Source: Escherichia phage Zappy
Strand: one strand, 5' to 3'
Sequence record: OQ870568.1
Length of the DNA stretch: 40,562 nucleotides
The position numbers were made by a program, and so were the translations under genes. Positions 1-40,562 of the stretch are shown piece by piece; position 1 is the first letter of the stretch; each line of letters opens with the position of its first letter. A model generated the notes under the pieces. The model was not told the DNA's origin. It worked only from the letters and a program-made list of their open reading frames with translations, and ran no database searches.

Positions 1-77
1 ACTACAGGCTCTGTTTTCTTCTCCCCATTAGAAGTAACAATAGGGTTGCTTCCGAGATATGCAGTTGTGAAACGGTT
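1..77. repeat. Terminal duplication, identical to 40486..40562 (overlap of a circularised contig)
   Basis: Direct comparison of the first 77 and last 77 bases: exact match. Confidence 0.9.
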
Positions 78-2489
78 ACTTGGTCCACCAAGCGCAATGA
101 CGTTATCGTGATAAGGCTTAACGTCAGCAGTCTGGAACAGATGCTCATTACCATTGTAAACTATTCGCTTTGAGTCGGTGTTATTTGCACCATAAAGCGT
201 AATCTGTGCGCCAGTCGTTGAACTAGTGCCTTCACCTCCGCAAAATATGGTGCGCTGCCCTGCCGGGTTATCAGTCGGTATAGATTTCCCGATAAACCCA
301 TATTCACCTTCCATTAAAACTTCAGAGCGAATGTTACTACTGGTGCTGGCTCTAATAGTCACATGACCTAAACCCAAATCCCCTGTAAATTCCATTGGCG
401 CAGGAACAGTGCGAATCCCATTCGTATCAAAAAACACGGGAACAGCTCTGTTAGGTACAGCACCATACCTGAAATCCCTAGAAACACGATTGTCTGGGCC
501 AATCTTCATTTTGTAGCAATACAAATCTGAGGGATGACCATCTGATTTGAATGGGTCCTTCGCTGAGTTATCTCCATAGGTCCATGGGTTAAAATGGTCC
601 TCTCCACCAAATATGTAGTAGATGTAATTATCCTTCACAACTACCGAACCAACACCTACACCTGAGTTAACTATTCCGCCCTGATAAATCTGGTCAGTGA
701 TGTTAACCCATTCAATATCATCTGCATTCCAATTGTTTACATTCAAGCGTGCATAGAAGGTGCGAGGATAAGATGCCTTGTAACGATCATCTGGTGCACC
801 TGCTTCCCATTCATTTTCTGCACGTTCCGAACCAAACATAATAAGGTCATCCCCTACTTTAGCAAAAGGCAATGTAGTATGATGAACATTATGTGGAAAT
901 CTCAGTGACTCCCAAGTCTGACCTATGTCTCTACTACGATGCAAAGAGCTACCTAGTCTATCCCCACGAGTGCCACGAGTGATAAGGTATAATACACCAT
1001 CATAGTACTTGATGCAAGGCTCTGCCGCATCTGGTTCATACTCAGATGGTATCTGACGACGAACATAATTAGATGGGCTATTGAAAGCATCAGGGAAGTA
1101 GAAAAGCCCAACTTCTCGTGGAGCTACATCACCTTGATGACAGCCCATAACAAAGCCATTGTTATCAATAGTAGCAAAGCTATGGACTTCAGTAACACGA
1201 GGGATTAAGCCAAGATCTGTTTTACGCCATGGAGACTTATGGAAGGAAGTACCCATATGCCAGTTCTTTCCAGCGTTATTCAAATCTGAAGTCTGCTGGT
1301 TTGGTGTAAGAACCGTGAAGTTGTCCTTATCTATTACGGTTGCAACAGTCATATTACCGGAGACACCTGTTACCGCAGAATTAGAGAAGTTAACAAAATC
1401 ACCCACGAATAGTCCGTGGTCTGGTACATGTATTGTTGCATATGGCTGATTTGCAGCTTTAGTGATACCACCAGTAAGATGCAGGCTACGAGACATGGGG
1501 CGATCCCACAATGCACAATTGGTTAATGCGTTCTTGGCTAAAGTACGTGTTTCAATCATGGCAAACAGACGGTTGCGACATACACCCATACTCATACAAT
1601 GATAGTTCACTGTAGGGTAATCTGGATGCAGATCAGTTAACCACTCTGGAGTAGACCATGTTTGACCATCATCACCAGACTTAACCCATGATACATGCAG
1701 ACGACTAACACCATGACGATCGCTACCCATGTAAGGTGCATATATCACATTATCATATACGAACGCTTTATCCTGAGGCCACGCATTGTAATAAGGGGTG
1801 TCCGTTATTTTGAACAACTCACCCTGAACAAATTCCTCAGAGACATAATAAAGAGGTTGTCCCGGAATGCGCTCATAAACGAAACGAGTGTTGATGAAGC
1901 GACTAATGTCAGGCAGGGATGTGACCTTATATGTCTTCCCATTGCCATTAATCTTTTGTCCAACCGGTGTGTCATTTAATACGCGCGTTAACGCTTCTGT
2001 ATCATCAGTGACACCGTCCCCTTTAGCATCCCAACCACGAAGATCAGGCCAGCGTGCCCAGAAACTCGCAACTATTCGGCGTGCTTCGTCCTCGCTATCC
2101 TTAGCGTTGCCAGCAGAGCTACCAGCAGCATCGGCATATTCCTTTGCTAAGTCAACCGTTTGGTCTCGACCTTCTTCTGCAATATGGATAGCCTGAAGCT
2201 CTGAATTGGTCAGGTCACTAGCTGTCAACACTGAGCCATTCCTGAAGTCTACCACTAAGTCAGTTCCAGTCTGACGGTGAATACGAACGATGTCGAAACC
2301 TGATTGGTCAGCCAACATCTCAATCATCGTTGGATTAAGGAATCGGTAATCTCGACCAACTTCCAGTACACGGTTCAGAGCAGGGTTAGAGCTATTCACC
2401 AGCGTAACAACAACAAACGTTCTGGCTAGGTAGTCGAACTCAATCCTGTACTGAGTGTTTCCTGACGGGAATTGTGTAATCGTGGACAT
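1..2489 (-). CDS. 17: Tail fibre/tailspike gp17, N-terminal ~830 codons; the ORF runs off the window start and continues in frame into 40053..40485
   Basis: ATG at 2489 with AAGGAGG 4 nt upstream. Hand translation [30 protein letters not shown] matches the T7 gp17 N-terminal adaptor domain. Downstream [11 protein letters not shown] (about 1995-2020) and Asp-box SGDDGQTW (about 1650-1676). No minus-strand stop reported before position 1; frame is continuous across the 77-bp duplicate. Confidence 0.85.
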
Positions 2490-2535
2490 TATGCCTCCTT
2501 TGTGATTTAAGCGGAGACCTATGGTAGCGCCTCCA

Positions 2536-2558
2536 GTTTCCTATAGTGATAGTTTAGT
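2536..2558 (-). promoter_or_regulatory. Phage RNAP promoter (phi17-like), minus-strand sequence ACTAAACTATCACTATAGGAAAC
   Basis: Matches the 23-bp motif found 11 times in this genome; sits between the gp16 stop and the tail fibre start. Confidence 0.7.
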
Positions 2559-5500
2559 CCTTGATGTGGATACCTTGCTCCTCAAACGTTCCAAGTAACA
2601 GCTTCTGGGTAATTGGGTCGTTAGGAACCAGTTCACGGAACGTATTATACATCCCGGTCATGTAGTCACGCTCGTTGACACGAGTGTCGGCCTTCAGGTA
2701 GCCAGCCAAGTTGTAAGCCGAAACTCCAACGTTAGCAGCATATCCGAAAGCTGGAACCTGCTCCAAGAAGTTACCAACAACATTCATCACAGGGTCACTT
2801 GTAGCTGCACCAAACGTGATGGCACGTTCAGGCTTCTCTGTAGGCGAACGAGGTAGGATAGACGAACGGAGCATCTTAGTGGCCTCATATCCAGCGATTC
2901 CACCTAGAATGTTAGCTACCCCAAGTGGGCCACCCAGATGTGAACTACGGGACAGAGCCGCATAACCAATCATCGTCGGGTCCAGAGCTTGCTTAAGGTA
3001 GTCACGGTCTCGACCATCCTGCATAGCATAAGCCTTGACGTGCACCTGAGCTATGTAGTTGATACCAGCCAGACCCATAGACATCACGGTCGATAATGCA
3101 GCGTCAATCGCTCGGTTGTTCTTCGTGGCGTTATAGAAGGTACGCATGGTTCGCCCATTGATGGACTTGATGACGAAGTTCTTAAACTGAAGGACAGTCT
3201 TAGCGATAGGGCCATAAGCCTTGGCGTCCATGTTGGACAGCTTGTGGGGCCGGAGTAACGTTTCGTCAGCGATGGTGTCACCCATACGCCATAGGTCCAT
3301 AGCCCTTGGGTCCTGACTGAACGCCTTCTTATCCTTGATGGTGTACTTCCCGTCTGGACCACGAGTCACTGACTCACGGATTAGGGACTTAATGCCATTC
3401 CACTGCTCGTCAGATATACCAGCGGTCTTCAGCCAGCGGTCATCGAACTTACGCTTACTACCAGTCAGGCTATGCTCCACGATGTCAGACAGGAAGCCTT
3501 GACGTCCAGCATCTAACAGGTAGTTGGTCGTACCGTTGAGGACTTTAGTGAACGGAGAGCGTACTGCAAGTTCGCCAGTGTAATACTTGGCAGTCCCCAG
3601 AGCTGTAGCTGTACCACGACCGAGGTCACTGTAAGATCGCAGACGGTCAATGACATCCTGTTTAGACGGACGGATTGAGTCATCCAGTTCCTTACCGAAG
3701 ATAACATTGTGCAGGTCCTTAATCTCTGAGGCCCCAACCTTCTTGTTACGGAAGGCTAGGTCACGGAAAATCGGGACTCCATGCAGCATTGCACGAACGT
3801 TGCCACGAGCCAGCATACCACCAATCTCCGTTAAGTTCTGAACACCCATGTAGGCATTCTTAGCGAAGAACGATAGGTCTGTCATTGTGCGCATCACGGT
3901 AGCGAAGGCTGCATCATCAGCACCATCACGTCGAGCACGACCTGTTAGAATCTTCAAGGTGTCACGTAAGGTAGATACTTCACCTTTCAACTTACCGTCA
4001 TCCCCAGCCTTGTTCATCATGGTCTCAACCAAGTCCTTCATGTCCTTCGTGGTTTTGCCTGTACCAGCCATGATAGCAATATCGCCATTAACTCGACGGT
4101 TGTAGGCCGGGACAATCTTGTCCATGTCCCACTCACGCAGGTTGTTGACACTGAAGGTCTGACCGTTAGGTAGGACGATTGACATATCGCTATCGAACAG
4201 GTTACGAGCCTCAAGGAAGCTGTTGTTCTCCAGACCAACCAGACCGTTGATGTTCTCTTCCATTACGGATGAACGTTCGAACTGCTCGGTGTGTGAGATA
4301 CCGTAAGCCTTATCGTTGGCGTACTTATCGACCGCAGCAGCAAGTCCCTCTGGAGTCAACGTAGGGTCAGACTCTAAGAGTGCCTCGTCAACGCGTTTCT
4401 TGACTTCAGGTCGAGACGCATAGCTGGTCAACCATGACTTCTTGATGGCCTCCTGCAACGCCTCTGGACTCCCAAGCTCCTTGATGTACAGCTCCTTCAT
4501 CTGTTTGCTATACACATGAGGGACGTAGGTTCCCTTGAAGCGGCTACCCGGAAAGATAGACTGAGCGTCTGGACGACCAAACATCGCCGGGTTCTCCATC
4601 ATCTCACGCTTGGCGTCAAACTGGTTCTTCAGTAGGTCATAGACTTTAAGTTCTCCCGGAGTCAGTTCAGCCTTCAGGTTCCCACTTCCGTCTTCAATAG
4701 CCATAGACACACGCTGGTAGATGTCCTGACGGAATGCGCCAGAGTCTCGCCAGAATGCTGTCTGGAAGTATGGGTCCTTTAGTGCCTCAGTAACCGCATC
4801 GTCGATGTCGTTGTAGAACCGATGGTCCACAGCACGAAGTCTCTCGAATACGTCTGACGCAGTGGTCCCGATTTTACCTGAGGCCCCTGACTGCATACCG
4901 GTTGGTGAACGCACTAAGTCAGCAGCGACTCCACGAATCTCTGGGTTCTCAGACCGAAGTAGCTTCAGACCAATCTCGGTAAGTCCACCAAGGTTCACAC
5001 CAGCAGCGGCACGTTCTGGCTCAATCACTTCGTCGAAGACTTGACGTGTCTTAGGGTTCAGAGGGTTCTCACCAATCAGGATTGAACCATCTTCTAATCG
5101 TACACTTCCCGGCTCATTAGGAACGTCAGCGAACTTAACGCCTTGATAACTAAAGGTCTGCTCACCTTCTTGAATAGGTAGACGAGACAGGTCCTGACCA
5201 TCAACGTTACGGGCTGTCTCACGAGCTTCCAGACGTGTAGCTGGGCCGGCAAACTCATTAGTGTTGCGACCTAAGGCTCTGCCTAACCCATCAGCGATGG
5301 CAGTCATACCACCACCAAAGAGAGCACCACCAAGGATAGCTTCAGCCACATGAGCATCACCACCAGCCACTGAGGTACGGGCCATCTCTGATACACCAGC
5401 AAGTGCTCCAGATTGAGCAGCCACGGTGAACATCTTGTTGACCAGCTTCGCACCTTTGCCAACCTGTCCAGCGATAGGGACGTAGGTCAGCGGGTCTACA

Positions 5501-18179: not shown

Positions 18180-19082
18180 TTACATGGATGGTGTCCACAG
18201 GATGACCTCCTTGGACTTAGGGTCATAGTCAGAGGCTCGACAAATACGAGCGACCTGAGCTTGTACCAGAAGTTCCTCCTCGGTCATTCCAGCCTTAGCA
18301 GCCAGTGTAACCATGCAGTCCCACAGCGTCATGTCTTCACGCTTCGGATACTTCTTCCACTCAGTCTTAATCTGGCCTTTGTTCTTACCAGTCTTAAGCT
18401 CGCGGCTCTCCTGCACGAAGTAATACGGTTCGTCAAGGAATTCACGAGTGGTGTCCTCACCCATCCCAGGAATACCGCCGTAGCCATCTGTAGTGTCACC
18501 CTTGATGGTCTGCTCCATGTGCCAGTAGTCTGCCTCGGAAGTCGTATGACTCAGGATTTCACCAGTGGTTAACCAGAAGAACTCACAGTTCGGGATGGTC
18601 TTGAAGTCCTTATCGCAGGACACCAGCACCGCATGGTCGCATCCGACAATCTGAGGTCTGGTCCCGATGATACCCATACAATCATCACCCTCAAGCGTTG
18701 GACGCAGGAAGCTGTTGAACCGTGGGTCAGCCATCACTTCGGCTACGAACTTCTTGTAACCTACAGGCTTGCGAGAACCATTACGGTTAGCCTTATAGGT
18801 AGGTAAAACGTCCTTACGCCAGTTGTTATCATCAGTAAAGCACATCACAATCTTAGCGTCTTTCCACGCCTTGCGCTTCTTAACGATTTCAGCGATGGTG
18901 TTCTCAAGGATACGACGAGCCTTCTCGTGGTCGCAGATAAGGGTCCAGATGTCATCACCCCAGTCTGTCTCTTCCTCGGCAGCAGCCATAGAAGAGAATA
19001 CTAGGTAATCGCCATCAAGAACAAGAGCTATCTTCTTCTCAGCACCCATCGTCCAGACCTCCTGTAGCCATAGCGACTGCAT
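18180..19082 (-). CDS. 6: 5'-3' exonuclease gp6, 300 aa (alternative start ATG 19049 has a better RBS)
   Basis: ORF track; VLDGDYLVF, DKDFKTIPNCEF, WDCMVTLAAKAGMTEEEL resemble T7 gp6; same length as T7 gp6. Confidence 0.9.
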   Translation of the reverse strand: MQSLWLQEVWTMGAEKKIALVLDGDYLVFSSMAAAEEETDWGDDIWTLICDHEKARRILENTIAEIVKKRKAWKDAKIVMCFTDDNNWRKDVLPTYKANRNGSRKPVGYKKFVAEVMADPRFNSFLRPTLEGDDCMGIIGTRPQIVGCDHAVLVSCDKDFKTIPNCEFFWLTTGEILSHTTSEADYWHMEQTIKGDTTDGYGGIPGMGEDTTREFLDEPYYFVQESRELKTGKNKGQIKTEWKKYPKREDMTLWDCMVTLAAKAGMTEEELLVQAQVARICRASDYDPKSKEVILWTPSM

Positions 19083-19494
19083 ATGGCATCAAGGGAACTT
19101 TAGGCTCCTCAATACGTTCCAGAGTCACCTCAGGCTTCAGCCATTTGTTGGCGAACTCATGTGCCATGTCGTTGTCCTCTGAGTTGAGGTGGGACATCAG
19201 GTTCCAGAAGTTTGAAGACATCTCAGTCTCCTTCTCAACCCGGCGATATACTCCCCAGTCATTTACCTCTGAACCGTAGCTGTCATTCCACATACCACTT
19301 GCTACGATGGTCAGCCCGATGAACGGACGCCACTCATAGGCCTCAGCGGGAGACTCGGTGTATGACTCAACGTCCTTCTCGGTCAGGGTGTATGACCAAG
19401 ATGCGTAGAACTCAGCGTACTTGCGGTGCTCCTTCTCGCACTCACACTCACCTATGTCAAGGACCAGCTCTTTCAGACTTTCAGGTATCTTCAT
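19039..19494 (-). CDS. Hypothetical protein, 151 aa, at the gene 5.9 position
   Basis: ORF track, trimmed to the ATG at 19494 that overlaps the gp5.7 stop as ATGA. No recognisable similarity. Confidence 0.55.
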   Translation of the reverse strand: MKIPESLKELVLDIGECECEKEHRKYAEFYASWSYTLTEKDVESYTESPAEAYEWRPFIGLTIVASGMWNDSYGSEVNDWGVYRRVEKETEMSSNFWNLMSHLNSEDNDMAHEFANKWLKPEVTLERIEEPKVPLMPYAVAMATGGLDDGC

Positions 19495-20150: not shown

Positions 20151-20456
20151 TTACTCCTGTTTGAATTGTCCGAACTTCTTGTCGGACGTTAAGTTTATAC
20201 ACATAGAGGTCTTAACTCTAACCTCTTCAGTGAATGGGATTAACCATAAGTTATCTTGGTACACAACCGCCAGAAGGTCGATGTCTCCCGGACTGTACGT
20301 GGGCTTCCCGCATCCTCCAAGCCTGACCTGTATACTGTTACAGTTCTTCAGCTTTGTTCCAGTCTTTACCTGAACTCTCGTTAAGGTCCCACCAATGTCC
20401 ACCACTAAGTCTGCTTTGGACTGGGTAAACGCTGGTAGGAAGACTTGGTGTCCCAT
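20151..20456 (-). CDS. Hypothetical protein, ~101 aa, start uncertain
   Basis: Downstream part of ORF 20151..20759 that does not overlap the DNA polymerase gene; first ATG after the polymerase stop; weak RBS. Confidence 0.3.
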   Translation of the reverse strand: MGHQVFLPAFTQSKADLVVDIGGTLTRVQVKTGTKLKNCNSIQVRLGGCGKPTYSPGDIDLLAVVYQDNLWLIPFTEEVRVKTSMCINLTSDKKFGQFKQE

Positions 20457-20520
20457 TGCTGTTAGTCTGTAGCTCGCATATAGCTCACTGGCTGCACCTG
20501 TAAAGTGCTGAGTCGTACCA

Positions 20521-22692
20521 TCAATGGCATTCTTTCCATGTTGGTCCAATCTTGCCCTCAGTATCAAGTACACACTTGAAGTTATAGAACTCACCCACCT
20601 TACGCATAGCAAGTTGAGCAATCTTGACGACTTCTTCGGCAATCTCCTGAGTACGGCAAGCAATCTGCAATTCGTCGTGAACCCAGGCCATGTACGCGAA
20701 GTCTCCCTCCCAGCCGTGAACATACCCTGACTCTTCAAGCATACGTTCAGTCTCGACAATCCAGTGCTTACAGACTACCGCACCATCGCCTTGAAGTAAG
20801 GCGTTCAGTGCTGAGTGCGGCGACCGGATGTGGATACGGCGACCGTCAAGTCCACGCAGCCAACGGCGTTTCCACTTAACGATGTTCTCTCCGTCCACCC
20901 ACTTAGAGTCTGAGATTAACGTACTACTCACAGCTTCCCTGAGGTCTTTGATGGCTGGTGTACCCTCAATGAATTTCTGCATGAGTGCTGAACCTTCCTT
21001 CTTCCCACCGCCTACTATCAGTCCAATCTTCGCGGCCCCTGCACCATATAGGAACGCATAGATGAACGTCTTAGCGTTGTTACGGAAAGCATCATGGTCG
21101 TGGCTGGACTTATCGCGTGGGACGTTAGGTGCTAACCCAGCGTTTACTGCGTTGGCCCAGTGGATGTCACCTTCGACCACAGTCTTCGCATAGGCACCAC
21201 CATCAAACGGAGCCGCTCGGTTCCCCAGACAACGAAGCTCAAGACCTGAAGCATCCACACCCACTTGAATCCAAGGGTCTGGCTTACCATCCGTCTTGTT
21301 CCAAGCTGCACCGAAAGCACCACGGCAAATCTCACCATACGGAGCACCGTTAGCAGGGACCTGAGCCATGTTTGGTGAACTATGAGTCGCACGTCCGGTT
21401 ACTGCCCCGCATGGGTTGATTGAACCGTGCATCCGTCCGTCTGGACCTACAAGTTTCAACCATGCGTTCTTACCTTCAGCCGCCTGACCGATGCGCTTCT
21501 GGACTACCAGATACTCACGAACTAGCTCTACGCAATCCTGAGCCTCTGCGTCTGGCAACTTAACGTGTTCTAACGTCTCGTCATCGACTACAGGTTTCCC
21601 GGTGTCAGTGAAGTCCACAGGCTCCCAGCCACGCTCCATCAGAACTTTCGCTAAGTGGTCTCCGCTTCCCGGATTAAACTCAACGTAAGTGATTGGCGTG
21701 AAGGGTGCTCCCTCCATCGTGTCTCGCGTATCGCGTTCACAGGGTTCAAGACCTAAGCGTTGAGCTTTGTTCTTCGGCTTCTTAAAGATGCCACCGACCT
21801 TAGGATACACGACTCTCGGATACTTCGGAAGGTCCTTGCCTGTCCGTGGGTGCTTGAAGAACTCCTTGCCTCCCTTTGGTGCGTACCAGCTGCCGAAAGT
21901 CGAACGCAGCTTGTCCAGCAGCTCTGCACGCTTGACGGTGAGTTCACGATATAAGCCTTCGACCATCTCGGTGTTCATCGGATAGCCGTTACGTTCCATC
22001 TTCGCACAGGTCCACGCAGCATCATGTTCCAGACGCAACGCATAAATCTGGTCGAAAGCGAACTGTTCAGACTGGAAGTAATACTTGTCAGTCAGGAACT
22101 TCTTGAACAACGCCAGTGTGACCACAACGTCTTGAACGTTATAGTCCAGCATCTCCTGAGACGGGAACAACCATTCGTCCCCAGCCTTATATTCGATACC
22201 TTCAGCCTTGCATTTGGCAACGTAATCGTGTTTGTACTCACCTTTCATCTCCCCGAGACGATAGCCCCAAGCCTCAAGAGACTGTCGTCCCATCATCTGA
22301 GGTGGCAGACGTCCAGATTTCACCGCTCCCATGTCTGAGAACTTAATGTTGGGATACATCAATCGCCCAAGCACCAAGGTATCAACAATTCGACCCTTAT
22401 TCACATTTAGGTTCTTACCGAAGTATTTCTTCTTCAGTATTTTCAAGGCTGGTATATCATAGTTCACACCATTATGCATAACCAGCATACCGTCAGTGGA
22501 TGTCATAATAGATTCTATGCGGTCTATATATTCTTTGAATCCACCTGTCAGCCCAGTCATAGGGGCAACACCATATTTCTCAGTAGCTTGAGTTCCAGCG
22601 TTAATGATAACACCACAGTGGAACTGTGACACAGTGTCTAGTAGACCGTCAGTCTCTATATCTGTGCCATAGAATGAGTTGAGATTAAACAT
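20521..22692 (-). CDS. 5: DNA polymerase gp5 (family A, with 3'-5' exonuclease), 723 aa
   Basis: ORF track; many T7 gp5-like stretches (NVQDVVVT, GSWYAPKGG, KYPRVVYPKVGGIFKKPKNKAQR, DASGLELRCL, FAYMAWVHDE). Confidence 0.95.
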   Translation of the reverse strand: MFNLNSFYGTDIETDGLLDTVSQFHCGVIINAGTQATEKYGVAPMTGLTGGFKEYIDRIESIMTSTDGMLVMHNGVNYDIPALKILKKKYFGKNLNVNKGRIVDTLVLGRLMYPNIKFSDMGAVKSGRLPPQMMGRQSLEAWGYRLGEMKGEYKHDYVAKCKAEGIEYKAGDEWLFPSQEMLDYNVQDVVVTLALFKKFLTDKYYFQSEQFAFDQIYALRLEHDAAWTCAKMERNGYPMNTEMVEGLYRELTVKRAELLDKLRSTFGSWYAPKGGKEFFKHPRTGKDLPKYPRVVYPKVGGIFKKPKNKAQRLGLEPCERDTRDTMEGAPFTPITYVEFNPGSGDHLAKVLMERGWEPVDFTDTGKPVVDDETLEHVKLPDAEAQDCVELVREYLVVQKRIGQAAEGKNAWLKLVGPDGRMHGSINPCGAVTGRATHSSPNMAQVPANGAPYGEICRGAFGAAWNKTDGKPDPWIQVGVDASGLELRCLGNRAAPFDGGAYAKTVVEGDIHWANAVNAGLAPNVPRDKSSHDHDAFRNNAKTFIYAFLYGAGAAKIGLIVGGGKKEGSALMQKFIEGTPAIKDLREAVSSTLISDSKWVDGENIVKWKRRWLRGLDGRRIHIRSPHSALNALLQGDGAVVCKHWIVETERMLEESGYVHGWEGDFAYMAWVHDELQIACRTQEIAEEVVKIAQLAMRKVGEFYNFKCVLDTEGKIGPTWKECH

Positions 22693-23116
22693 TATATTTC
22701 TCCAAGTACGTTATAGCAGCCCTAAGCACAGCTACCTTGTCACCGAACTTACCAAGTGCGCTATTACATGTACCACATAGCAATCCCCTAACACTACCTG
22801 AGTCATGGCAATGGTCAACGTGGGCTACATTATTCTTACTCTCAATAGACCCATGCTTGAAGATAATGTCTGAGCATATAGCGCATCTGCCCTTTTGACT
22901 ATCGAACATAGTGTCATATTCCTCAAGTGTGAGACCATAGGCTTTCTTAAGCCAAGACTTACGGGCAGATAGACGATGCGCCTCACCAGCCTCTGTACCT
23001 TTGTTTCGGTGATATCGCGACCTATTATCCTCACGAGCACAGGATATGCACCACCCATTTGTCTTCCTGAACTCAGTGGACTCCTTTGTGGAGCCGCATC
23101 TACTGCAAGTCCTCAT
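22685..23116 (-). CDS. Endonuclease VII-family protein (homing-endonuclease-like), 143 aa
   Basis: ORF track; motif HVDHCHDSGSVRGLLCGTCNSALGKF typical of the T4 endonuclease VII family; N-terminal Cys-rich region; RBS AAGGAG. Confidence 0.8.
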   Translation of the reverse strand: MRTCSRCGSTKESTEFRKTNGWCISCAREDNRSRYHRNKGTEAGEAHRLSARKSWLKKAYGLTLEEYDTMFDSQKGRCAICSDIIFKHGSIESKNNVAHVDHCHDSGSVRGLLCGTCNSALGKFGDKVAVLRAAITYLEKYNV

Positions 23117-23149
23117 ATTGCTTCTCCTTTAGTTATAAGTCTAGTCATA

Positions 23150-25324: not shown

Positions 25325-25535
25325 CTTTGAAGAACTTAGCCAATTGGTCAGCTTTGGTATCAGCCTGACGAGCCTTCATGCCAGCTTCCAGTGACGCGAT
25401 GGTCAGCTTGTCAGCCAGAGCAGCAGCATCAGCCGCGCCGGTCGCAGTCTTCTTTTCTACCTTTCGTTCCAGTACCGCAGCACGACGATAACCACGCACC
25501 ACCAGACGACCAAGAAATTCGATAAGTTTAATCAT
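25320..25535 (-). CDS. Hypothetical protein, 71 aa
   Basis: ORF track; ATG with AGGAG upstream; between the lysozyme and primase genes. Confidence 0.5.
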   Translation of the reverse strand: MIKLIEFLGRLVVRGYRRAAVLERKVEKKTATGAADAAALADKLTIASLEAGMKARQADTKADQLAKFFKA

Positions 25536-25672
25536 TGGGTTGTTCTCCTAGCCATTCGATGGCTTCATTAGATGTTTTGAAAGACTTCGACGTCCTCTCG
25601 CCAAAGCGCTGCTTGTGTGCTACATAAGGCTTACCATTTCTGGATAGACCTGATGGACTAGATGGGTCGATG

Positions 25673-26140
25673 CTAAACTGATTCGCGGTCAGATGTAACC
25701 AGTTCATTCTTGGTCCACCATCGCTTCACGTCGAAACTCGGACAGGCTTTGGCTGCTACTGAATGATGGGCCATTAGCTCTGCATTAGGGTACTTACTCA
25801 TAAGCTCCTCCAGCTTGTTGCGCAGGGAGTTCATCTGGGCTGGAGTGAAGTTAGCTTCAAACTGACCCTTAGCGTCAATTCCGCCTACAAGGCAGACGCC
25901 TACTGACCGGGAGTTCCAATCCTTAACGTGTGACCCTACGACATTTACCGGGCGACCCTCTTCCACAGTACCATCACGCTTGATGATAAAGTGGTAGCCT
26001 ACATCCAGCCAGCCTTGCTGCTTGTGCCACATACGGATGGTCTCTACCCCGATGTCCATCTCTGGCTTGGTAGCCGAACAGTGAACGAAGATAGCGTCAG
26101 TCCGGGACCGTGGGTTGAATTGCACCTTACTCACCATCAT
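25673..26140 (-). CDS. 3.5: Lysozyme (N-acetylmuramoyl-L-alanine amidase, RNAP inhibitor) gp3.5, 155 aa
   Basis: ORF track; DAIFVHCSATKP, WLDVGYHFIIKRDGTVE, KACPSFDVKRWWTKNELVTSDR resemble T7 lysozyme. Confidence 0.9.
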   Translation of the reverse strand: MMVSKVQFNPRSRTDAIFVHCSATKPEMDIGVETIRMWHKQQGWLDVGYHFIIKRDGTVEEGRPVNVVGSHVKDWNSRSVGVCLVGGIDAKGQFEANFTPAQMNSLRNKLEELMSKYPNAELMAHHSVAAKACPSFDVKRWWTKNELVTSDRESV

Positions 26141-28618: not shown

Positions 28619-29080
28619 TTATAATAAATCTCTTAAGGCTACTGCCTCGGCTATGGTATCGAACGTACCGTATGACTTACGCTTTATCCGCAGTTGCCAG
28701 CGACCAGTTGATTTCTGGTATTGAACGTATTTCTCTCCAGATTGGCAGTGACTACGGGTTGGAACGTTAGTTAGGTTCACCGCCTGAGTCACACACCTGA
28801 GGTTCTCAATCCTGTTATCCGAAGGGTCCCGGTTGATATGGTCAATCACCATCCCTTCTGGTATAGGACCGTTGGTTAGTTCCCAAACTACTCGGTGGGC
28901 CAACTGCTGGCCCTTTGTCGTACTTAGAATCCAGTACCCATCCTTTCGTCTATAGCCAAGATGTCTACCGTTTAGGTTGGAGACCCCAGAGTGAGCCGCC
29001 CTGTCTGCTTTAAATCTTGACCGTAGGGTCGTCCTCAGTTCCACGCCACTGGTCGAACGAGGGATGCCGTAGTAAGCCAC
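28619..29080 (-). CDS. HNH homing endonuclease (HNH-A), 153 aa, GTG start
   Basis: ORF track; [39 protein letters not shown] is a typical HNH motif; GTG with GGAGGAG 7 nt upstream; paralogous to the ORF at 38505..38945. Confidence 0.8.
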   Translation of the reverse strand: MAYYGIPRSTSGVELRTTLRSRFKADRAAHSGVSNLNGRHLGYRRKDGYWILSTTKGQQLAHRVVWELTNGPIPEGMVIDHINRDPSDNRIENLRCVTQAVNLTNVPTRSHCQSGEKYVQYQKSTGRWQLRIKRKSYGTFDTIAEAVALRDLL

Positions 29081-34989: not shown

Positions 34990-35101
34990 CTACTTTCTGT
35001 CATCTGCCTGTTGTTCGTATGACTGATCAGGCTGTCTACTTAACCGGGATGGTCCGGCGTCTTCACTATCCGGTTGTTGCCGTGTCGTGTTGACGGAAGC
35101 T

Positions 35102-35130
35102 ATTAGGCCATATCCTTGACCTATAGTCAA
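35102..35130 (-). promoter_or_regulatory. Possible second sigma70 early promoter (A1-like): TTGACT - 17 bp - CCTAAT, with AT-rich upstream tract
   Basis: Good -35 and UP-like AT-rich region, but poor -10. Confidence 0.3.
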
Positions 35131-35280
35131 TAGGTAATTTGAAATAATATTGATTAAGTTATCGTCGGCCCCATGGTGTAAGAGGATATAGTCTTTGACT
35201 AACATGTCTTTGACCTTAAGTCTATAGCTCTGTGTCTAGTAACTGTAGGTCTCTGACTGTAGGCGTTGGTGTCTTATGGT

Positions 35281-35373
35281 TGAGACTGTAGGTTAGTGAG
35301 ACTGTAGGTTAGTGAGACTGTAGGTTAGTGAGACTGTAGGTTAGTGAGACTGTAGGTTAGTGAGACTGTAGGT
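35281..35373. repeat. Tandem array of a 16-bp unit (tgagactgtaggttag), 5 perfect copies plus a partial one
   Basis: Read directly; the core CTGTAGG also recurs at 35243, 35256, 35651 and 35668. Confidence 0.9.
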
Positions 35374-35848
35374 GTAGGACGTAATGTTATACTATAACAC
35401 TATACAGATAGAGACTCAAAGAAGACCTATAGCCCCTACCTATCGTCCTTCCCTAAGCCATAGCCTAGACCTATCGTTGACCTGAAGTCTTTACCATCGG
35501 TCCAACCTTATGATAGACTGGCTGTGACTGCAAGGAGCAGTAACGGGTAGGGCCTTTGGTCTGGACTTAAAGAGGGCCTATGGGGAGACTTGAGGTTCTT
35601 GAACTGTGAGATGTGGTCTCAAACTTTTGGTCCAAAACTCATCGTCACTACTGTAGGCCACAGCCACTGTAGGCCAAGGACCGTAGGTCAGGCGACACTA
35701 GGATAGACCAATAAGTAGGATGACCCTAAGTGAGCTTCTCTTAAGGTGTTACCTAAAGTCCTTGACTGCAGTAGCTAAGGTCAGTAGAGTAGCGTCAGCT
35801 ATGAACTGACCTTAGGTCTTCCGCTCATGAATCGTTACCATGATTGCG

Positions 35849-36007
35849 TTAATTACACTGAGAGACCAGAGAGCATACGAGAGTCTCGACCCACCCGACC
35901 CACTGACTTCCAGCAGTAACGCCAGCAGCAAGTAGAACAGCAGCAAGAAACCTGTATGTAGCTCGATTGGTCGCCAGAGCTTTAAGTACAGCTTTGGTCT
36001 TTGCCAT
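35849..36007 (-). CDS. Possible small membrane protein, 52 aa, at the gene 19.5 position
   Basis: Hand translation MAKTKAVLKALATNRATYRFLAAVLLAAGVTAGSQWVGWVETLVCSLVSQCN; AGGAGG 8 nt upstream of the ATG. Confidence 0.4.
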   Translation of the reverse strand: MAKTKAVLKALATNRATYRFLAAVLLAAGVTAGSQWVGWVETLVCSLVSQCN

Positions 36008-36153
36008 ATGCTACATACCTCCTGTATCTATGGTCGGTGACTATCTGTATTTGAGGGATTATGATTAATATCACCCTCCTCTATAGGGAGACTTAGAGTC
36101 TTATCTATATGCTAACTTTTAGTCGGCATACTATAAGGTCCCCCTAGGTCCCC

Positions 36154-36176
36154 CATCCCTATAGTGATAGTTAAGT
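36154..36176 (-). promoter_or_regulatory. Phage RNAP promoter (phiOR-like), ACTTAACTATCACTATAGGGATG
   Basis: Motif match; last promoter before the probable right genome end. Confidence 0.7.
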
Positions 36177-36189
36177 TAACCTATTGAAT

Positions 36190-36732
36190 TTACTTGTGGT
36201 TTCTCTTGGCCCTATCACGCTTAGGGGACCGTAGGGAAACAGCGTACTCCTTGTGCTTCTCTTCACGTAGTGCTGTCAGCCATGCTTCAAGTTCTATCAC
36301 AGAGTCGGAAGTCTTTGTGTAGCACTTACCCTTAAGTCGCAACTGAGCGCGATACTTTCCGGTAGGCTTGAAGAAGCTGATACCCTTAGGGAGACCATTA
36401 GTCTCGCCACCTCCTGAGTTCCATCTGTTCTCCAATGCTGTTACTAACCTGTAGTTATCCGGCCTGTCATCAAGCCTATCACCATTGATATGGTCAACCA
36501 TCATGCCAGAAGGTATTCGACCAACGGCTAGGCTGTAGATGATTCTGGCACGTCTATAGCGACTACCAAGGACCTTCACGATTGCGTACCCAGACGGATG
36601 GACTGAATGTCCCATGACCTCGCCTGGCTTCTTGTTAGAGCCTTTATAGGACTTCTTGCACACCAACTCACCATCTACATAAGCATAGTGATTAAAGAGG
36701 GCCACCCTGTCGATGGCCTTCTGTTTACTCAT
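36190..36732 (-). CDS. HNH homing endonuclease (HNH-B), 180 aa, immediately downstream of the large terminase gene
   Basis: ORF track; GRIPSGMMVDHINGDRLDDRPDNYRLVT HNH motif; RBS AGGAGG. Confidence 0.8.
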   Translation of the reverse strand: MSKQKAIDRVALFNHYAYVDGELVCKKSYKGSNKKPGEVMGHSVHPSGYAIVKVLGSRYRRARIIYSLAVGRIPSGMMVDHINGDRLDDRPDNYRLVTALENRWNSGGGETNGLPKGISFFKPTGKYRAQLRLKGKCYTKTSDSVIELEAWLTALREEKHKEYAVSLRSPKRDRAKRNHK

Positions 36733-36745
36733 ATTTCTCCTCCTA

Positions 36746-38512
36746 TTAGTGGAACGTAACGTATGACCCTAGTCCCAGCTCGTCGTCCGTATCGTGAGTT
36801 ACCCGGACCCCATTGTCCCAGAACTCAGTGTGGATGGACTCGAAGCCTTTCCGTGGGTTCTCCATCTGTTCCTCCAGCCACTCCTCAGTGACTTCACGTT
36901 CGCCTTTGTTGGCATCCTTAGCCATCGACTCAACGAAGAACTGTACACCGATAGCCAGCGCATCAAGTCGGTCATCGTGTGCCAAGGCTCCACGCTCACG
37001 AGAGATACGGGTCATCTGGTAGAAGAGAGAGTAGATAGGGTTACGAACACCATCCTTATCAGAGGCTGACTGGTAGTCTTGGACGATAGCAGCAGCGTTG
37101 ACGATAAGTCTGTGAGACCCCATGATAGGCTCCAGAACGTCACAGATTCGGAGTTCCTTCTGACCCTTACTCTTCACTTCAGTTACAGCAGCGGGATGAA
37201 TACGGGCAGCTACAGGCTTGAATAACTCAAGGTACATACCATCACCGAAGTTACCCTCAATGACGTATTCGTTTACCTTCCACTTACGACCAATCTTAGC
37301 CAAGGCTTCCAGCGTAGAGTCTTCATAACCACCGCGCATACCACCAACTTCCATAGCGAAGATGTAGCCGTTTAGCTGATATAGTACCGCATAACCAGTT
37401 TCATCCTTACCGCGACCACTAGGGTCAATGACCAGAATCTTCTGGGTGTATGAGCTGAAGGCAGAACCTACAGTCTGATACGTGTGGTACGAGTCACCCA
37501 TGAGGCCAACGTTAGGAACGTCCTCACGCTTGTTCTGAGGGTTAGGAAGCCATTGGTAGACCATTGGGCTGGACTCTGGGTCCAAGTCTGCTACGATAAG
37601 GTCACGGAGCTTCAGAGGGTACTTCTCGGCATCACTCAGGTTAGGGTTAAGCATGAACTGTAGAGCGAAGCCAGCTTTACCATAGGACAGCTCACGTTCC
37701 TTCAGGTCCGTATCATCGAATCGTACTTCATCGGTAGGACGCCAGTAGAAGGACTCAGGGTCCTCTTCAAGCTCTGCCTGAAGCATAGGAGCCAGACGGT
37801 CGCCGTAAGACTGCCAGTCCTTCTTATCGCGTGGGTAGCGAGCGGGCCAGATGGTAGTGGTATATCCACGACCTTCCAGCTCACGATACAAGGTCATCTC
37901 GTTCTGAGGAGTACCCAGATAGATGATTGTACCTCCCGGCTTCAGGATAGCGTCGAACTCTTTCACAAGCTCTGACAGACGGTCTCGTGCAGCCTGAGTC
38001 GCTGAGTTGTTCGGAACCTCCACGTCATCGGCAATCAGGATGTCAGCACGACTACCAGTCAACTGACCAGTGATACCAACGGACTTAACTGAAGGTGAGT
38101 GGTCTGGCTTGGCTGGTCCAACGTCGAAGCTGATAACCGCATCTCGCTGCCCCTGCTTAGGTTTAAGTTCCTGAAGCTGAGGCATGAGGTCGATGATTCG
38201 CTTGATGAAGATGGAGTTCGCATCGGCTCGTTCCTTTGAGGCCGACACAATCATGAACTTCAAGTCTGGGTTGTTCCATAGTTTCCAGACCACGAAACCA
38301 CAGGTCAGAAACGACTTGCCAATACCACGGAACGCCTGAAGGATGAAGCGGCGATTATCCCCAGCAGCCAGCTTCTTACACATATCTATCTGGCAGCGGG
38401 TTGGAACCGGAAGGCTAAGAGCTTTCCAGAGAACGAAGATGAAGAACACGAAGTCGTCCCTCATCCTTTGGGTCATTTCTGCCTGTCTTTCAACAGGTGT
38501 TTTCTTAGACAT
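36746..38512 (-). CDS. 19: Terminase large subunit (DNA maturase B) gp19, 588 aa
   Basis: ORF track; near-identical stretches to T7 gp19 ([74 protein letters not shown]). Confidence 0.95.
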
Positions 38513-38945
38513 AGAGTCCCTCCAGCATTAGGTCCCGGACAGAGATAGCCTCCTCTAAAGTAGGACGTGTTGTTCGAATACGGACTCCCTTACGCATGAC
38601 CTCGATAGCGTAGCCATTCTGATGGAACGATATGTTCTTAACTCCAGTCTTTGAGTCAGAATGTCCTGAGGTGTTGCAGGAGTTCTCGCTGGAAGTAACT
38701 AGCCGGAGGTTGTCCAGCCTGTTGTTAGTCCGGCAGCGGTCGATATGGTCAATCTCCATCCCTTCTGGTATAGGACCGTGGATTAGCTCCCAGACGACTC
38801 TATGGGCCAGCAGGAGTCCATGACGTCGAGTTCCTACCTGATAATACCCGTGGTTTCCCACACACCCCACATCCTTACCAGAACGCAGGGACTTCAGGCC
38901 AGACTTACTGGACTCATCATAGACATACGAATCACTGAGCATCAT
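38505..38945 (-). CDS. HNH homing endonuclease (HNH-C), 146 aa, immediately upstream of the large terminase gene
   Basis: ORF track; [25 protein letters not shown] nearly identical in its core to HNH-A; start overlaps the gp18.5 stop as ATGA, stop overlaps the gp19 start. Confidence 0.8.
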
Positions 38946-39385
38946 TTCTCCTTATCTTGCTGCAAGGCTCTCACAGTGTCCTGAAGAGCCTTAATCCACT
39001 TGTCTCCTTTCACTCCTATGGCGATAAGACGTTTAGCATCTCGTTCGTCAAGTTCGGCGTAACCATCAATGACGCATCGACCGTCACTTTGCGTGGTTCC
39101 ACTCGTTGGCTTGACTCGGATGCGCAGCCGCTTATTGTCAGACTGAAGGTCAGCAATAATCCTATCAGTGCTGCCTTCCAGCGAGGACATTTCGTCCTGA
39201 AACCGTTTGGACACTTTGTTGACTTCAGCTTGGACAGCAAGCCTTGTATCTTCCGATGCCTTAAGATTCGAGGTGTATTCTTCATTGACCTTAGCCTCCC
39301 ACTTATTGTTAGCGGTGTGGTAGCCACCAGCAAACATCACTGCTGCAAGTAACCACGGAGCCGCTCTCTTTAAAAATTCGAGCAT
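38942..39385 (-). CDS. 18.5: Rz-like i-spanin gp18.5, 147 aa
   Basis: ORF track; MLEFLKR, EGSTDRIIADLQSDNKRLRIRVK, DERDAKRLIA, WIKALQDTVRALQ resemble T7 gp18.5. Confidence 0.8.
   Translation of the reverse strand: MLEFLKRAAPWLLAAVMFAGGYHTANNKWEAKVNEEYTSNLKASEDTRLAVQAEVNKVSKRFQDEMSSLEGSTDRIIADLQSDNKRLRIRVKPTSGTTQSDGRCVIDGYAELDERDAKRLIAIGVKGDKWIKALQDTVRALQQDKEK
39016..39285 (-). CDS. 18.7: Rz1-like o-spanin gp18.7, embedded in the +1 frame of gp18.5 (~89 aa from the internal ATG)
   Basis: ORF track 39016..39333 (TTG-initiated); PRWKAALIGLLLTFSLTISGCASE lipobox and C-terminal SLMVTPNLTNEMLNV resemble T7 gp18.7. Confidence 0.6.
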   Translation of the reverse strand: MKNTPRILRHRKIQGLLSKLKSTKCPNGFRTKCPRWKAALIGLLLTFSLTISGCASESSQRVEPRKVTVDASLMVTPNLTNEMLNVLSP

Positions 39386-39448
39386 AGTTGCCCTCCCGGT
39401 TTATCAGATTTCACGTAGAGTCGCCTCCACTAGTTAGTGTTAACCATA

Positions 39449-39475
39449 AAGGCCACTACATATAGTAATGACCTT
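39449..39475 (-). promoter_or_regulatory. RNase III-type processing hairpin (R18.5-like)
   Basis: Minus-strand AAGGTCATTACTATATGTAGTGGCCTT; same conserved flanks and covarying stem as the hairpins at 30553 and 23150; between gp18 and gp18.5. Confidence 0.45.
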
Positions 39476-39486
39476 GAGTCTAACAC

Positions 39487-39750
39487 TTATTGAACACCAT
39501 ACCCGGTGTCATTATCTTCCGTAGCGGAGAGCACCTTATCGTACTCTGCGTTCAGGGCCTCCATATCAGCGAGCGTCTTCTCGTCAACAGACAACTTGCT
39601 TAGCACGAAGTTGTGACGAGCCAGTAGCTTCTCAATGGCGTTGTAAAGCTGAGGTGAACGCTTAGAGTCATCCCGCAGGTCTTGCAGCATGAGTCGAGCA
39701 CGTTCAGTATCCAGCATCAAGAGGAACTTCTCTAAGTCCATCTGCGTCAT
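39487..39750 (-). CDS. 18: Terminase small subunit (DNA maturase A) gp18, 87 aa
   Basis: ORF track; FLLMLDTERARLMLQDLRDDSKRSPQLYNAIEKLLARHNF resembles T7 gp18; RBS AAGGAGGTG. Confidence 0.8.
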   Translation of the reverse strand: MTQMDLEKFLLMLDTERARLMLQDLRDDSKRSPQLYNAIEKLLARHNFVLSKLSVDEKTLADMEALNAEYDKVLSATEDNDTGYGVQ

Positions 39751-40052: not shown

Positions 40053-40562
40053 TTACTTCTGTTCAAGAGCAGAAAGTCTGGCTTCGATTCTTTCCAGTTT
40101 TCTTCTCTGATAGGCGGCTTCAGCAAAGAAAATTCCGTCAGGCCGAACACCCCACTCCTCACCCCCTTCATGGATAACCACCTCAGTGAATACAGGTTCT
40201 TCCGTAGTAGTGACATTACCCTCCTCGTCAGTGTGTTCAATGATTTCATTGTGCGAAAATACCGTATCGGTCATCCGTGGATACTTGTCATAGCACAGAA
40301 CGGCATAACGACAATTCGTACTGTTTTCATCCATCAGACCGTGTGCAATGAATACATCACGAATTTGCTGAGCAATAACCCCGAAGTGAATACGAGCATC
40401 ATTGCCTTTCAGCTGAACAGCATCTAACCATTGATACATGATGTAGTGAACGTCACCCCAGGCATCTAGGAAAGCATCATCAAAAACTACAGGCTCTGTT
40501 TTCTTCTCCCCATTAGAAGTAACAATAGGGTTGCTTCCGAGATATGCAGTTGTGAAACGGTT
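40053..40562 (-). CDS. 17: Tail fibre/tailspike gp17, C-terminal part (same gene as 1..2489; 40486..40562 duplicates 1..77)
   Basis: ORF track 40053..40439; frame stays open upstream to the window end and is the same frame as the ORF at the window start; ends in a predicted coiled-coil (RRKLERIEARLSALEQK). Confidence 0.8.
   Translation of the reverse strand, partial: NRFTTAYLGSNPIVTSNGEKKTEPVVFDDAFLDAWGDVHYIMYQWLDAVQLKGNDARIHFGVIAQQIRDVFIAHGLMDENSTNCRYAVLCYDKYPRMTDTVFSHNEIIEHTDEEGNVTTTEEPVFTEVVIHEGGEEWGVRPDGIFFAEAAYQRRKLERIEARLSALEQK
40486..40562. repeat. Terminal duplication, identical to 1..77
   Basis: Exact match to the window start. Confidence 0.9.

Follow-up and report, generated by a model that had tools for sequence, protein, structure and literature searches.

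Introduction

Homing endonuclease genes (HEGs) have been described in so-called HEG-islands, where they bracket essential genes, including terL and the DNA polymerase gene, and where interchangeable HEGs occupy cognate positions (Barth, Dunham & Seed 2023, PMC10448857). The present analysis concerns the large terminase gene (gene 19) of Escherichia phage Zappy (OQ870568.1), which is flanked by two HNH genes, here termed HNH-B and HNH-C. The whole stretch of 40,562 nucleotides was analysed and is referred to as the window. Features of HEG-islands are found in it: the terminase and the DNA polymerase genes are each flanked at both ends by nuclease genes, and three types of HNH gene (C, C' and the pO91 type, described below) exchange at one site.

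Small free-standing nuclease genes placed between essential genes are also known from T7 (gp2.8, gp3.8, gp7.7 and gp5.3) and phiYeO3-12 (gene 1.45), and these belong to the same Pfam families as the nuclease genes of the window. A third HNH gene of the window, HNH-A, lies at the position of phiYeO3-12 gene 1.45, and a PD-(D/E)XK endonuclease gene lies at the position of T7 gene 5.3. However, the identity of the T7 and phiYeO3-12 genes to those of the window is 36–64%, and T7 has no nuclease gene beside gene 19.

The closest counterparts of HNH-C are found at the junction of gene 18.5 (Rz) and gene 19 in Citrobacter phage CR8 ('3.8A'), phage 101120B2 ('HNH homing endonuclease') and Hafnia phage Ca (ORF48; PMC8861465), where they occupy the same site with the same overlaps with Rz and gene 19. 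A HEG at this site is annotated in many records, and the window departs from them in no substantive way. It has HNH-B in addition, at the opposite end of gene 19, a feature that it shares with Escherichia phage SR04. In the records of JSS1, phiYIO1-1 and CHRF_30001, HNH-B carries the annotation HNH endonuclease; SR04 lists the terminase-flanking genes only as hypothetical proteins. Both the 18.5/19 HEG and a speculation about packaging for the same site are already in print (PMC8861465). The finding is therefore real but ordinary, with known families at known sites in a pattern that has already been documented.

Among structurally characterised enzymes, the nearest relative is I-HmuI of Bacillus phage SPO1 (PDB 1U3E), which shares with HNH-B and HNH-C an N-terminal β region and a DH...N...N core. 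I-HmuI is intron-encoded, whereas HNH-B and HNH-C are free-standing and intergenic, and the sequence identity is only 16–24%. The C-terminal DNA-binding part of I-HmuI consists of helical and helix-turn-helix domains. The corresponding part of HNH-B and HNH-C differs from it, being modelled as a module of three strands and a helix that is tentatively AP2-like.

A further described system is that of the packaging factors of the HK97 gp74 type, in which an HNH-motif protein is likewise encoded beside the terminase genes. According to the summary of Kala et al. 2014 given in PMC8861465, such factors are needed specifically by Terminase_1-family enzymes of long-tailed phages.

Layout of the terminase locus

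HNH-B and HNH-C are very probably two independent free-standing HEGs of the HNH_3/I-HmuI-like type, that is, selfish mobile cassettes, one at each end of the essential terminase gene. On this reading, the terminase is their landing pad and hitch-hiking cargo, not their functional partner. The genes of the locus are as follows.

36746..38512, minus strand: gene 19, the bracketed essential gene, encoding the large terminase (588 aa; PF22530, E = 6e-38; Terminase_6N, E = 2e-4)
38505..38945, minus strand: HNH-C, a free-standing gene, situated between genes 18.5 (Rz) and 19, for an HNH_3 homing endonuclease of 146 aa (PF13392, E = 2.8e-21)
36190..36732, minus strand: HNH-B, a free-standing gene, situated downstream of gene 19, for an HNH_3 homing endonuclease of 180 aa (PF13392, E = 1.6e-14; phrog_99, E = 1e-39)

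The bracketing of the terminase by two HNH genes, as given in the original prediction, holds, and all the open reading frames (ORFs) are found at the coordinates that it gave. The TAA stop of HNH-C overlaps the ATG of gp19 by 8 nt (ATGTCTAA), and the ATG of HNH-C overlaps the stop codon of Rz/gp18.5 (ATGA). HNH-B starts 13 nt past the gp19 stop codon (36746–36748) and has its own strong Shine-Dalgarno sequence, TAGGAGGAGAAATATG. The gp19 protein is 92–99% identical in Kayfunavirus relatives, whatever their HEG content.

This adjacency, together with the translational overlap of HNH-C and gene 19, is what speaks for a role in packaging, in which HNH-B and/or HNH-C would help the terminase to cut concatemers, as HK97 gp74 does with Terminase_1-type enzymes in cos phages. 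The terminase itself argues against such a role. It is of the T7 type with its own RNaseH-like nuclease domain (PF22530), and there is no Terminase_1 match among the Pfam hits of gp19; T7 moreover packages its DNA although neither its 18.5/19 interval nor the one from gene 19 to phiOR holds a gene. The gp74-type factors also differ from HNH-B and HNH-C in HNH subfamily, in architecture and in terminase family, and the genome of the window is that of a T7-family podovirus, with HNH genes that are not conserved with the terminase and that near-identical relatives dispense with.

Family, fold and selection of the HNH proteins

HNH-A, HNH-B and HNH-C all match the HNH_3 family (PF13392) with E values of 1.6e-14 to 1.2e-22, and all three fall in phrog_99, 'HNH endonuclease'. 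HNH-C matches I-HmuI (1U3E) by sequence (E = 0.002), and its catalytic core aligns with the DH...NN...N of I-HmuI, D74-H75 included; searched by sequence in the same way, HNH-B yielded nothing in the PDB but a spurious RNA-binding match (E = 0.14). In the homologue alignments, H67 and N79 of HNH-C were invariant in 41 homologues, and H81 and N93 of HNH-B in 27. The positions D66/D80, N88/N102 and N91/N105 (HNH-C/HNH-B numbering) were at least 90% conserved.

AlphaFold2 models were built on the homologue alignments and reached predicted local distance difference test (pLDDT) values of 91 for HNH-C and 82 for HNH-B. A Foldseek search against the PDB placed I-HmuI (1U3E) first for both models with a Foldseek probability of 1.00 (E = 9.6e-5 for HNH-C and 9.4e-4 for HNH-B), and besides I-HmuI no match was found at E ≤ 1e-3 for either model. 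These family and fold matches uphold the homing-endonuclease-like identity that had been proposed for the two genes.

In both models the C-terminal module was a three-strand sheet plus a helix, with weak matches to AP2 folds (7ET4, probability 0.91; 3IGM, 0.6). The module may tentatively be assigned to the AP2-like DNA-binding type. The assignment is tentative because Pfam detected AP2 neither in the HNH proteins of the window nor in the isolated C-terminal fragments of HNH-A, HNH-B and HNH-C, even at E ≤ 10, and its support comes from the models and the homologues. In the latter, Pfam AP2 was found beside HNH_3 in the remote homologues P0004 and P0019, and in the site-mates from pO91 and phiYIO1-1 at E values of 0.004–0.005. 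The predicted combination of an I-HmuI-like HNH_3 domain and a putative site-recognition module is an architecture of homing enzymes, which is a further point against a packaging function.

The ratio of non-synonymous to synonymous substitution rates (dN/dS) was 0.07–0.14 for HNH-B against JSS1, pO91, phiYIO1-1 and CHRF_30001, and 0.07 for HNH-C against the copy in Citrobacter phage NS1, which is its most diverged full copy. HNH-B and HNH-C are therefore selected proteins rather than relics, and both genes are under purifying selection.

Occupancy of the insertion sites among relatives

The region 35500–39500 of the window is 98.6% identical to SR04 and 88–96% identical to many Kayfunavirus (K1F-like, Autographiviridae) genomes. 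Over 20 kb of core sequence, SR04 was again the top match, with 96% identity at 92% coverage. The window is therefore an isolate-level variant within a well-sampled genus. The comparison set was made up of 80 loci from IMG/VR that surround relatives of the terminase, together with fifteen segments of GenBank phage records, and the state of the 18.5/19 junction was counted among GenBank phages with diagnostic 109-nt junction queries.

All occupancy states were found among relatives whose terminase is 89–99% identical. Neither gene is present at seven loci (L007, L008, L009, L010, L012, L022 and L023). HNH-C alone is present in 101120B2 and PRF-SP1, and HNH-B alone in JSS1 and CHRF_30001, while both occur together in the window and in SR04. 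A second allele, C', which is 64% identical to HNH-C, takes the HNH-C site in L005, L006 and Hafnia phage Ca. In pO91 and phiYIO1-1, HNH-B is accompanied by an unrelated upstream HNH_3-AP2 gene (~37% identical). Three HNH lineages, namely C, C' and the pO91 type, thus occupy one and the same 18.5/19 site.

Across the GenBank phages, the 18.5/19 junction was empty in 139 records and occupied in 57, and HNH-B was found at an amino acid identity of at least 80% in 14 records. The possibility that all relatives carry the same genes at the same positions, raised as a potential objection to homing, is not borne out, since empty sites are common. Alignment with endonuclease-free relatives, which had been suggested as a check, defined the insertion edges of HNH-C, HNH-B, an endonuclease VII (Endo VII)-family gene and the PD-(D/E)XK gene. 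Relatives with a 97–99% identical gp19 lack HNH-B, HNH-C or both, and this, like the large number of empty upstream junctions, argues against a need for either protein in packaging.

A separate observation at this site concerns L012 (IMGVR_UViG_3300045988_000139), an otherwise 'empty' genome with an insert of ~170 bp between Rz and gene 19 (2831..3001); the insert has no similarity to HNH-A, HNH-B or HNH-C.

Anatomy and movement of the HNH-C cassette

The unit that moves at the upstream end of gene 19 is larger than the HNH-C reading frame. It measures about 480 bp, takes in roughly the first 15–20 codons of gene 19 and is linked to a variant of the gene-19 5' end.

38467..38944, minus strand: HNH-C mobile cassette, comprising the HEG, a new Shine-Dalgarno sequence, the gene-19 ATG and gene-19 nt 1–46, delimited by the ectopic copy in NS1
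38450..38512, minus strand: gene-19 5' variant linked to the HEG, covering ~20 codons from the start, from a comparison of 19 loci; empty alleles read MSKDLVARQELMTARMKAD

In empty genomes, an AAGGAGG at the 3' end of Rz serves gene 19, which starts with TTG. In occupied genomes, the same AAGGAG precedes the ATG of HNH-C, and gene 19 starts with an ATG that follows a GGAGGG within the 3' end of the HEG. Relative to empty alleles, the left edge of the cassette lies right after AAGGAG and the right edge at about nt 50–63 of gene 19. Occupied and empty genomes differ sharply over the first ~20 codons of gene 19, but from about nt 64 onward the empty locus L007 agrees with the window, its gene-19 nt 61–300 being 100% identical. 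In the 19-locus sample, the gene-19 5' variant was seen in 7 of 7 carriers of HNH-C or C' and in 0 of 9 empty loci, and the pO91-type HEG is accompanied by a third variant.

The C' allele (L005, L006 and Hafnia phage Ca, L094) is 64% identical to HNH-C at the amino acid level and has the same gene-19 5' end, and its last ~45 nt are essentially identical to those of HNH-C. Such a near-identical 3' end in an otherwise diverged gene implies recombination within the HEGs themselves.

The HNH-C protein is 97–99% identical in 101120B2, PRF-SP1, SR04 and CR8. CR8 belongs to another genus, Caroctavirus, and still carries HNH-C at 99% nucleotide identity. Its gene 19 is 95% identical to that of the window over nt 1–60 and 92% over nt 61–300, after which the identity falls to 80% and 78%, and the 3' half of Rz directly upstream of HNH-C is 69% identical. 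As read from these alignments, the similarity has an abrupt edge on the left and, on the right, a co-conversion tract along which identity declines, a pattern that points to horizontal transfer.

Mobility is further illustrated by Citrobacter phage NS1 (L088, MN715150.2, locus 3590..4065), which has a 478-bp copy of HNH-C (90% nucleotide identity) between genes 17 and 17.5. The ectopic insert carries 46–53 nt of the gene-19 5' end and is flanked by an imperfect direct duplication of the target of 81–97 bp. Its HNH-C reading frame has been lengthened through loss of the TAA stop. The native 18.5/19 site of NS1 is empty, and the native 5' end of its gene 19 is a further distinct variant. The extent of the ectopic copy delimits the mobile unit as 38467..38944 of the window. 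The persistence of the HNH-C reading frame at a location away from the terminase, under purifying selection, also counts against a packaging function.

The HNH-B block

At the downstream end of gene 19, HNH-B is likewise part of a larger replacement block, which includes a phage promoter.

36081..36746, minus strand: HNH-B-linked replacement block (666 bp), comprising its own Shine-Dalgarno sequence, HNH-B, a phiOR-type promoter and ~75 nt of altered leader, delimited by breaks in homology
36156..36174, minus strand: counterpart of phiOR, a promoter for the phage RNA polymerase that is conserved within the HNH-B block, an exact match to TTAACTATCACTATAGGGA

Homology to 101120B2, which lacks HNH-B, breaks after 36080 and restarts at 36747, at the gene-19 stop. 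The block stands in place of ~225 bp found in genomes without HNH-B. The promoter sequence TTAACTATCACTATAGGGA occurs 9 times in the window, where chance alone would give 0.03, and in T7 the same place, between genes 19 and 19.5, is taken by phiOR. Past the phiOR-type promoter, the leader (36081..36155, minus strand) exists in two unrelated versions that co-segregate with the presence or absence of HNH-B, and the segment downstream of phiOR is common only to HNH-B carriers, at 87–100% identity.

Proposed mechanism of homing

The arrangement suggests how the two genes could spread. Both would be transcribed late, by read-through with genes 17–19, and neither appears to have a phage promoter of its own. 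The translation of HNH-C may be coupled to that of Rz through the ATGA overlap and use the Shine-Dalgarno sequence from which gene 19 is translated in empty genomes. During co-infection with a HEG-less relative, the enzyme would nick or cut the rival genome near the empty site. Judged by allele linkage, the target of HNH-C would most likely lie at the 18.5/19 junction or within nt 1 to ~60 of gene 19, and that of HNH-B would most likely lie between the gene-19 stop and the phiOR leader. Phage recombination would then repair the break from the HEG-bearing genome and copy the cassette together with a gradient of flanking sequence, of the kind seen in CR8. The HEG-bearing genome differs in its own target region and would be spared by virtue of that difference.

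By analogy, the same logic would cover the Endo VII-family and PD-(D/E)XK genes at the DNA polymerase gene and HNH-A after the ligase gene.

Several observations weigh against the reading of HNH-B and HNH-C as selfish homing cassettes. The first is Kayfunavirus sp. EcoIv1_Emlis (L093, OX460933.1, ~1480..1570), which has a HEG-less junction and yet a gene-19 5' end of the HEG type, with a GTG start. This weakens the idea that the 5' variant is created by the HEG or diagnostic of it, and the variant is therefore a natural allele, carried along by the cassette, that does not necessarily confer immunity. The Emlis junction is either an ancestral donor allele or the product of a precise loss of the HEG. 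The second concerns the age of HNH-B, whose alleles are 77–89% identical at the nucleotide level against 95–98% for the flanking terminase, with dS up to 1.5. Divergence so far beyond that of the terminase indicates old HEG lineages circulating in similar backgrounds rather than a recent sweep. Thirdly, in the last 60 nt of gene 19, the only HNH-B-linked change was TAA versus TAG; TAA also occurs in some empty genomes, and an HNH-B-linked change at the 3' end of gene 19 was dropped as a candidate for this reason. Finally, in Hafnia phage Ca a 397-bp deletion within the cognate HEG tracks with small plaques (PMC8861465), so that the cassette may not be phenotypically neutral.

Alternative explanations

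The plaque phenotype leads to the alternative that survives best, although it is doubtful in itself and is compatible with selfish homing. According to it, HNH-C is selfish but hard to lose, as an imprecise loss would lower terminase expression and fitness. HNH-C has taken over the Shine-Dalgarno sequence of gene 19, which now uses the GGAGGG within the 3' end of the HEG, and the internal deletion in Hafnia phage Ca correlates with small plaques. Since the ribosome-binding site and start of gene 19 lie inside the HEG 3' end, and HNH-C is probably translated in coupling with Rz, the Hafnia plaques would be explained more simply by an effect in cis on the expression of the terminase or the spanin than by a function of the protein; such an effect was also weighed by the authors of the Hafnia phage Ca study (PMC8861465). 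Against entrenchment, the plaque-size correlation comes from a single study, without reconstruction or complementation, Emlis is viable without a HEG and has the same gene-19 5' end with a GTG start, and empty genomes form the majority (139 against 57 GenBank records). It is likewise conceivable, though we consider it improbable, that the HNH-C cassette sets the dosage of the terminase through the captured ribosome-binding site, the replaced initiation region and the altered N-terminal codons, and so makes its own loss costly. Acting with HNH-B, the cassette might also carry pieces of the terminase gene back and forth among Kayfunavirus and Caroctavirus. If true, entrenchment would explain the plaque-size dimorphism that accompanies the cognate deletion in Hafnia phage Ca.

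It is a good deal less likely that HNH-C and HNH-B form a two-ended HEG-island and jointly move the entire terminase gene, as cargo, from phage to phage. In favour of this, the window, SR04, pO91 and phiYIO1-1 have an HNH gene at either end of gene 19, and the concept has been published with terL examples (PMC10448857). Nevertheless, HNH-B and HNH-C occur independently of each other, and HNH-B alleles differ by 11–23% of nucleotides where terL differs by 2–5%. The whole island in such systems exceeds 90% nucleotide identity between otherwise dissimilar phages, whereas high similarity in the cross-genus comparison with CR8 (at least 92%) does not extend past the HEG and the initial ~300 nt of gene 19, the remainder of terL being 78–80% identical. 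The CR8 gradient and the independent occupancy by HNH-B and HNH-C thus leave the movement of the whole terminase as cargo unsupported.

There is very little to favour the view that the HNH genes are decaying, inactive remnants. At the gene 3.8 position there is an ORF that might be such a remnant (25528..25707). The HNH reading frames themselves are of full length with intact catalytic D-H/N/N columns, their dN/dS values are low (0.07–0.14), and HNH-C is near-identical across genera and has an ectopic copy besides.

The packaging role, which had been thought conceivable from the position of the genes and has been raised as a hypothesis for Hafnia phage Ca, where genomes with the deleted HEG dominate the small plaques (PMC8861465), is the least credible reading of all, given proteins of homing type, a T7-type terminase with its own nuclease domain and relatives that dispense with one or both genes.

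The practical value of reading HNH-B and HNH-C as selfish homing cassettes lies mainly in annotation. The two genes should be labelled as homing endonucleases and not as packaging factors. The locus offers a clean natural system for the study of intron-less homing in T7-family phages, with many near-isogenic sequenced phages in every state: those that have neither gene, HNH-C alone, HNH-B alone or the two together, those with an ectopic copy, and those in which the HEG-linked flank adjoins an empty site. In phage-therapy genomics, caution is called for, as differences between Kayfunavirus isolates around the terminase and polymerase genes are largely HEG traffic.

Other nuclease genes of the window

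Three further nuclease genes were identified, two at the DNA polymerase gene and one after the ligase gene.

28619..29080, minus strand: HNH-A, HNH_3 gene after the DNA ligase gene, with a 71-nt overlap with the ligase 3' end (PF13392, E = 1.2e-22)
22685..23116, minus strand: endonuclease VII-family gene upstream of the DNA polymerase gene, within the insert block 22663..23137 (PF02945, E = 1.6e-24)
20151..20549, minus strand: PD-(D/E)XK (PDDEXK_5, I-Ssp6803I-type) endonuclease gene directly after the DNA polymerase gene (PF11645, E = 9.2e-10, 39.1 bits against a cutoff of 26.1)

HNH-A has a GTG start behind GGAGGAG. It is 64% identical to the 'HNH endonuclease' encoded by phiYeO3-12 gene 1.45, which has the same position. 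At an identity of at least 80%, it was found in only 12 GenBank records, and it is absent from 101120B2. HNH-A and HNH-C share 37.9% identity over 140 aa. The description of the two as close paralogues is therefore too strong: they belong to the same family only, and the shared motif quoted in its support is the conserved HNH_3 core.

The Endo VII-family gene overlaps the start of the DNA polymerase gene, as had been noted, by 8 nt, and its PF02945 match supports the family assignment. Its insert measures 475 bp, and SR04 and 101120B2 have just 47–48 bp at this place; the gene was found at an identity of at least 95% in only 4 GenBank records. The first ~20 codons of the DNA polymerase gene are heavily diverged in the occupied allele (22620..23137, minus strand; MFNLNSFYGTDIETDG versus MFDLKSIWGSDIETNG), and the region of the DIETDG exonuclease motif is included. 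This divergence mirrors the arrangement of HNH-C and the gene-19 5' end.

The PD-(D/E)XK gene falls in phrog_5018 and gives a 52% match to gene 5.3 of Kvp1. It lies in an insert of ~360 bp with a clean junction, which is missing in SR04 and 101120B2. No in-frame ATG is present near its 5' end, and the start is likely a TTG at ~20549 behind GAGGG, overlapping the 3' end of the polymerase gene. With Endo VII upstream and PD-(D/E)XK downstream, the DNA polymerase gene is bracketed like the terminase gene.

The original prediction counted four homing-endonuclease-like genes. All four are supported by Pfam; the total has to be raised, as the PD-(D/E)XK gene at 20151..20549 had been overlooked as the fifth. 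A scan of ~20 small unassigned ORFs of the window for further HEG families found none beyond the five reported. The density of these genes had been called high for a T7-like genome, a view that the comparison does not sustain. Judged by the same Pfam criterion, the 39.9-kb genome of T7 contains four such genes, namely gp2.8, gp3.8 and gp7.7 (HNH_3) and gp5.3 (PDDEXK_5). Klebsiella phage p9676 has four HNH_3-like places, other T7-family genomes of ~40 kb have three or four, and phiYIO1-1 has three nuclease genes around genes 18–19 alone.

A 59-aa ORF (25528..25707, minus strand; MNWLHLTANQFSIDPSSPSGLSRNG...) was observed at the position of T7 gene 3.8, in a segment of ~120 bp that is absent from SR04. 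By eye it resembles the N- and C-terminal ends of an HNH-AP2 protein without the nuclease core. As a candidate HEG remnant it was rejected, with no Pfam or PHROG match and no BLAST similarity to HNH-A, HNH-B or HNH-C.

Genome setting

According to the ORF list, all genes of the window lie on the minus strand and are arranged as in T7. As a circular permutation, the window begins and ends within the tail-spike gene, gene 17 (1..2556 and 40053..40562), and the GenBank record of SR04 opens at the identical point. The natural genome ends and the terminal repeat should lie at ~35000–35800, in the interval bounded by gene 19.5 and the ocr gene.

A 151-aa ORF (19039..19494, minus strand) of phrog_4382 (unknown function) with a Cys-rich N-terminus separates gene 5.7 from the exonuclease gene. 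It is present in SR04 but not in 101120B2, and it is thus another accessory gene of the presence/absence kind.

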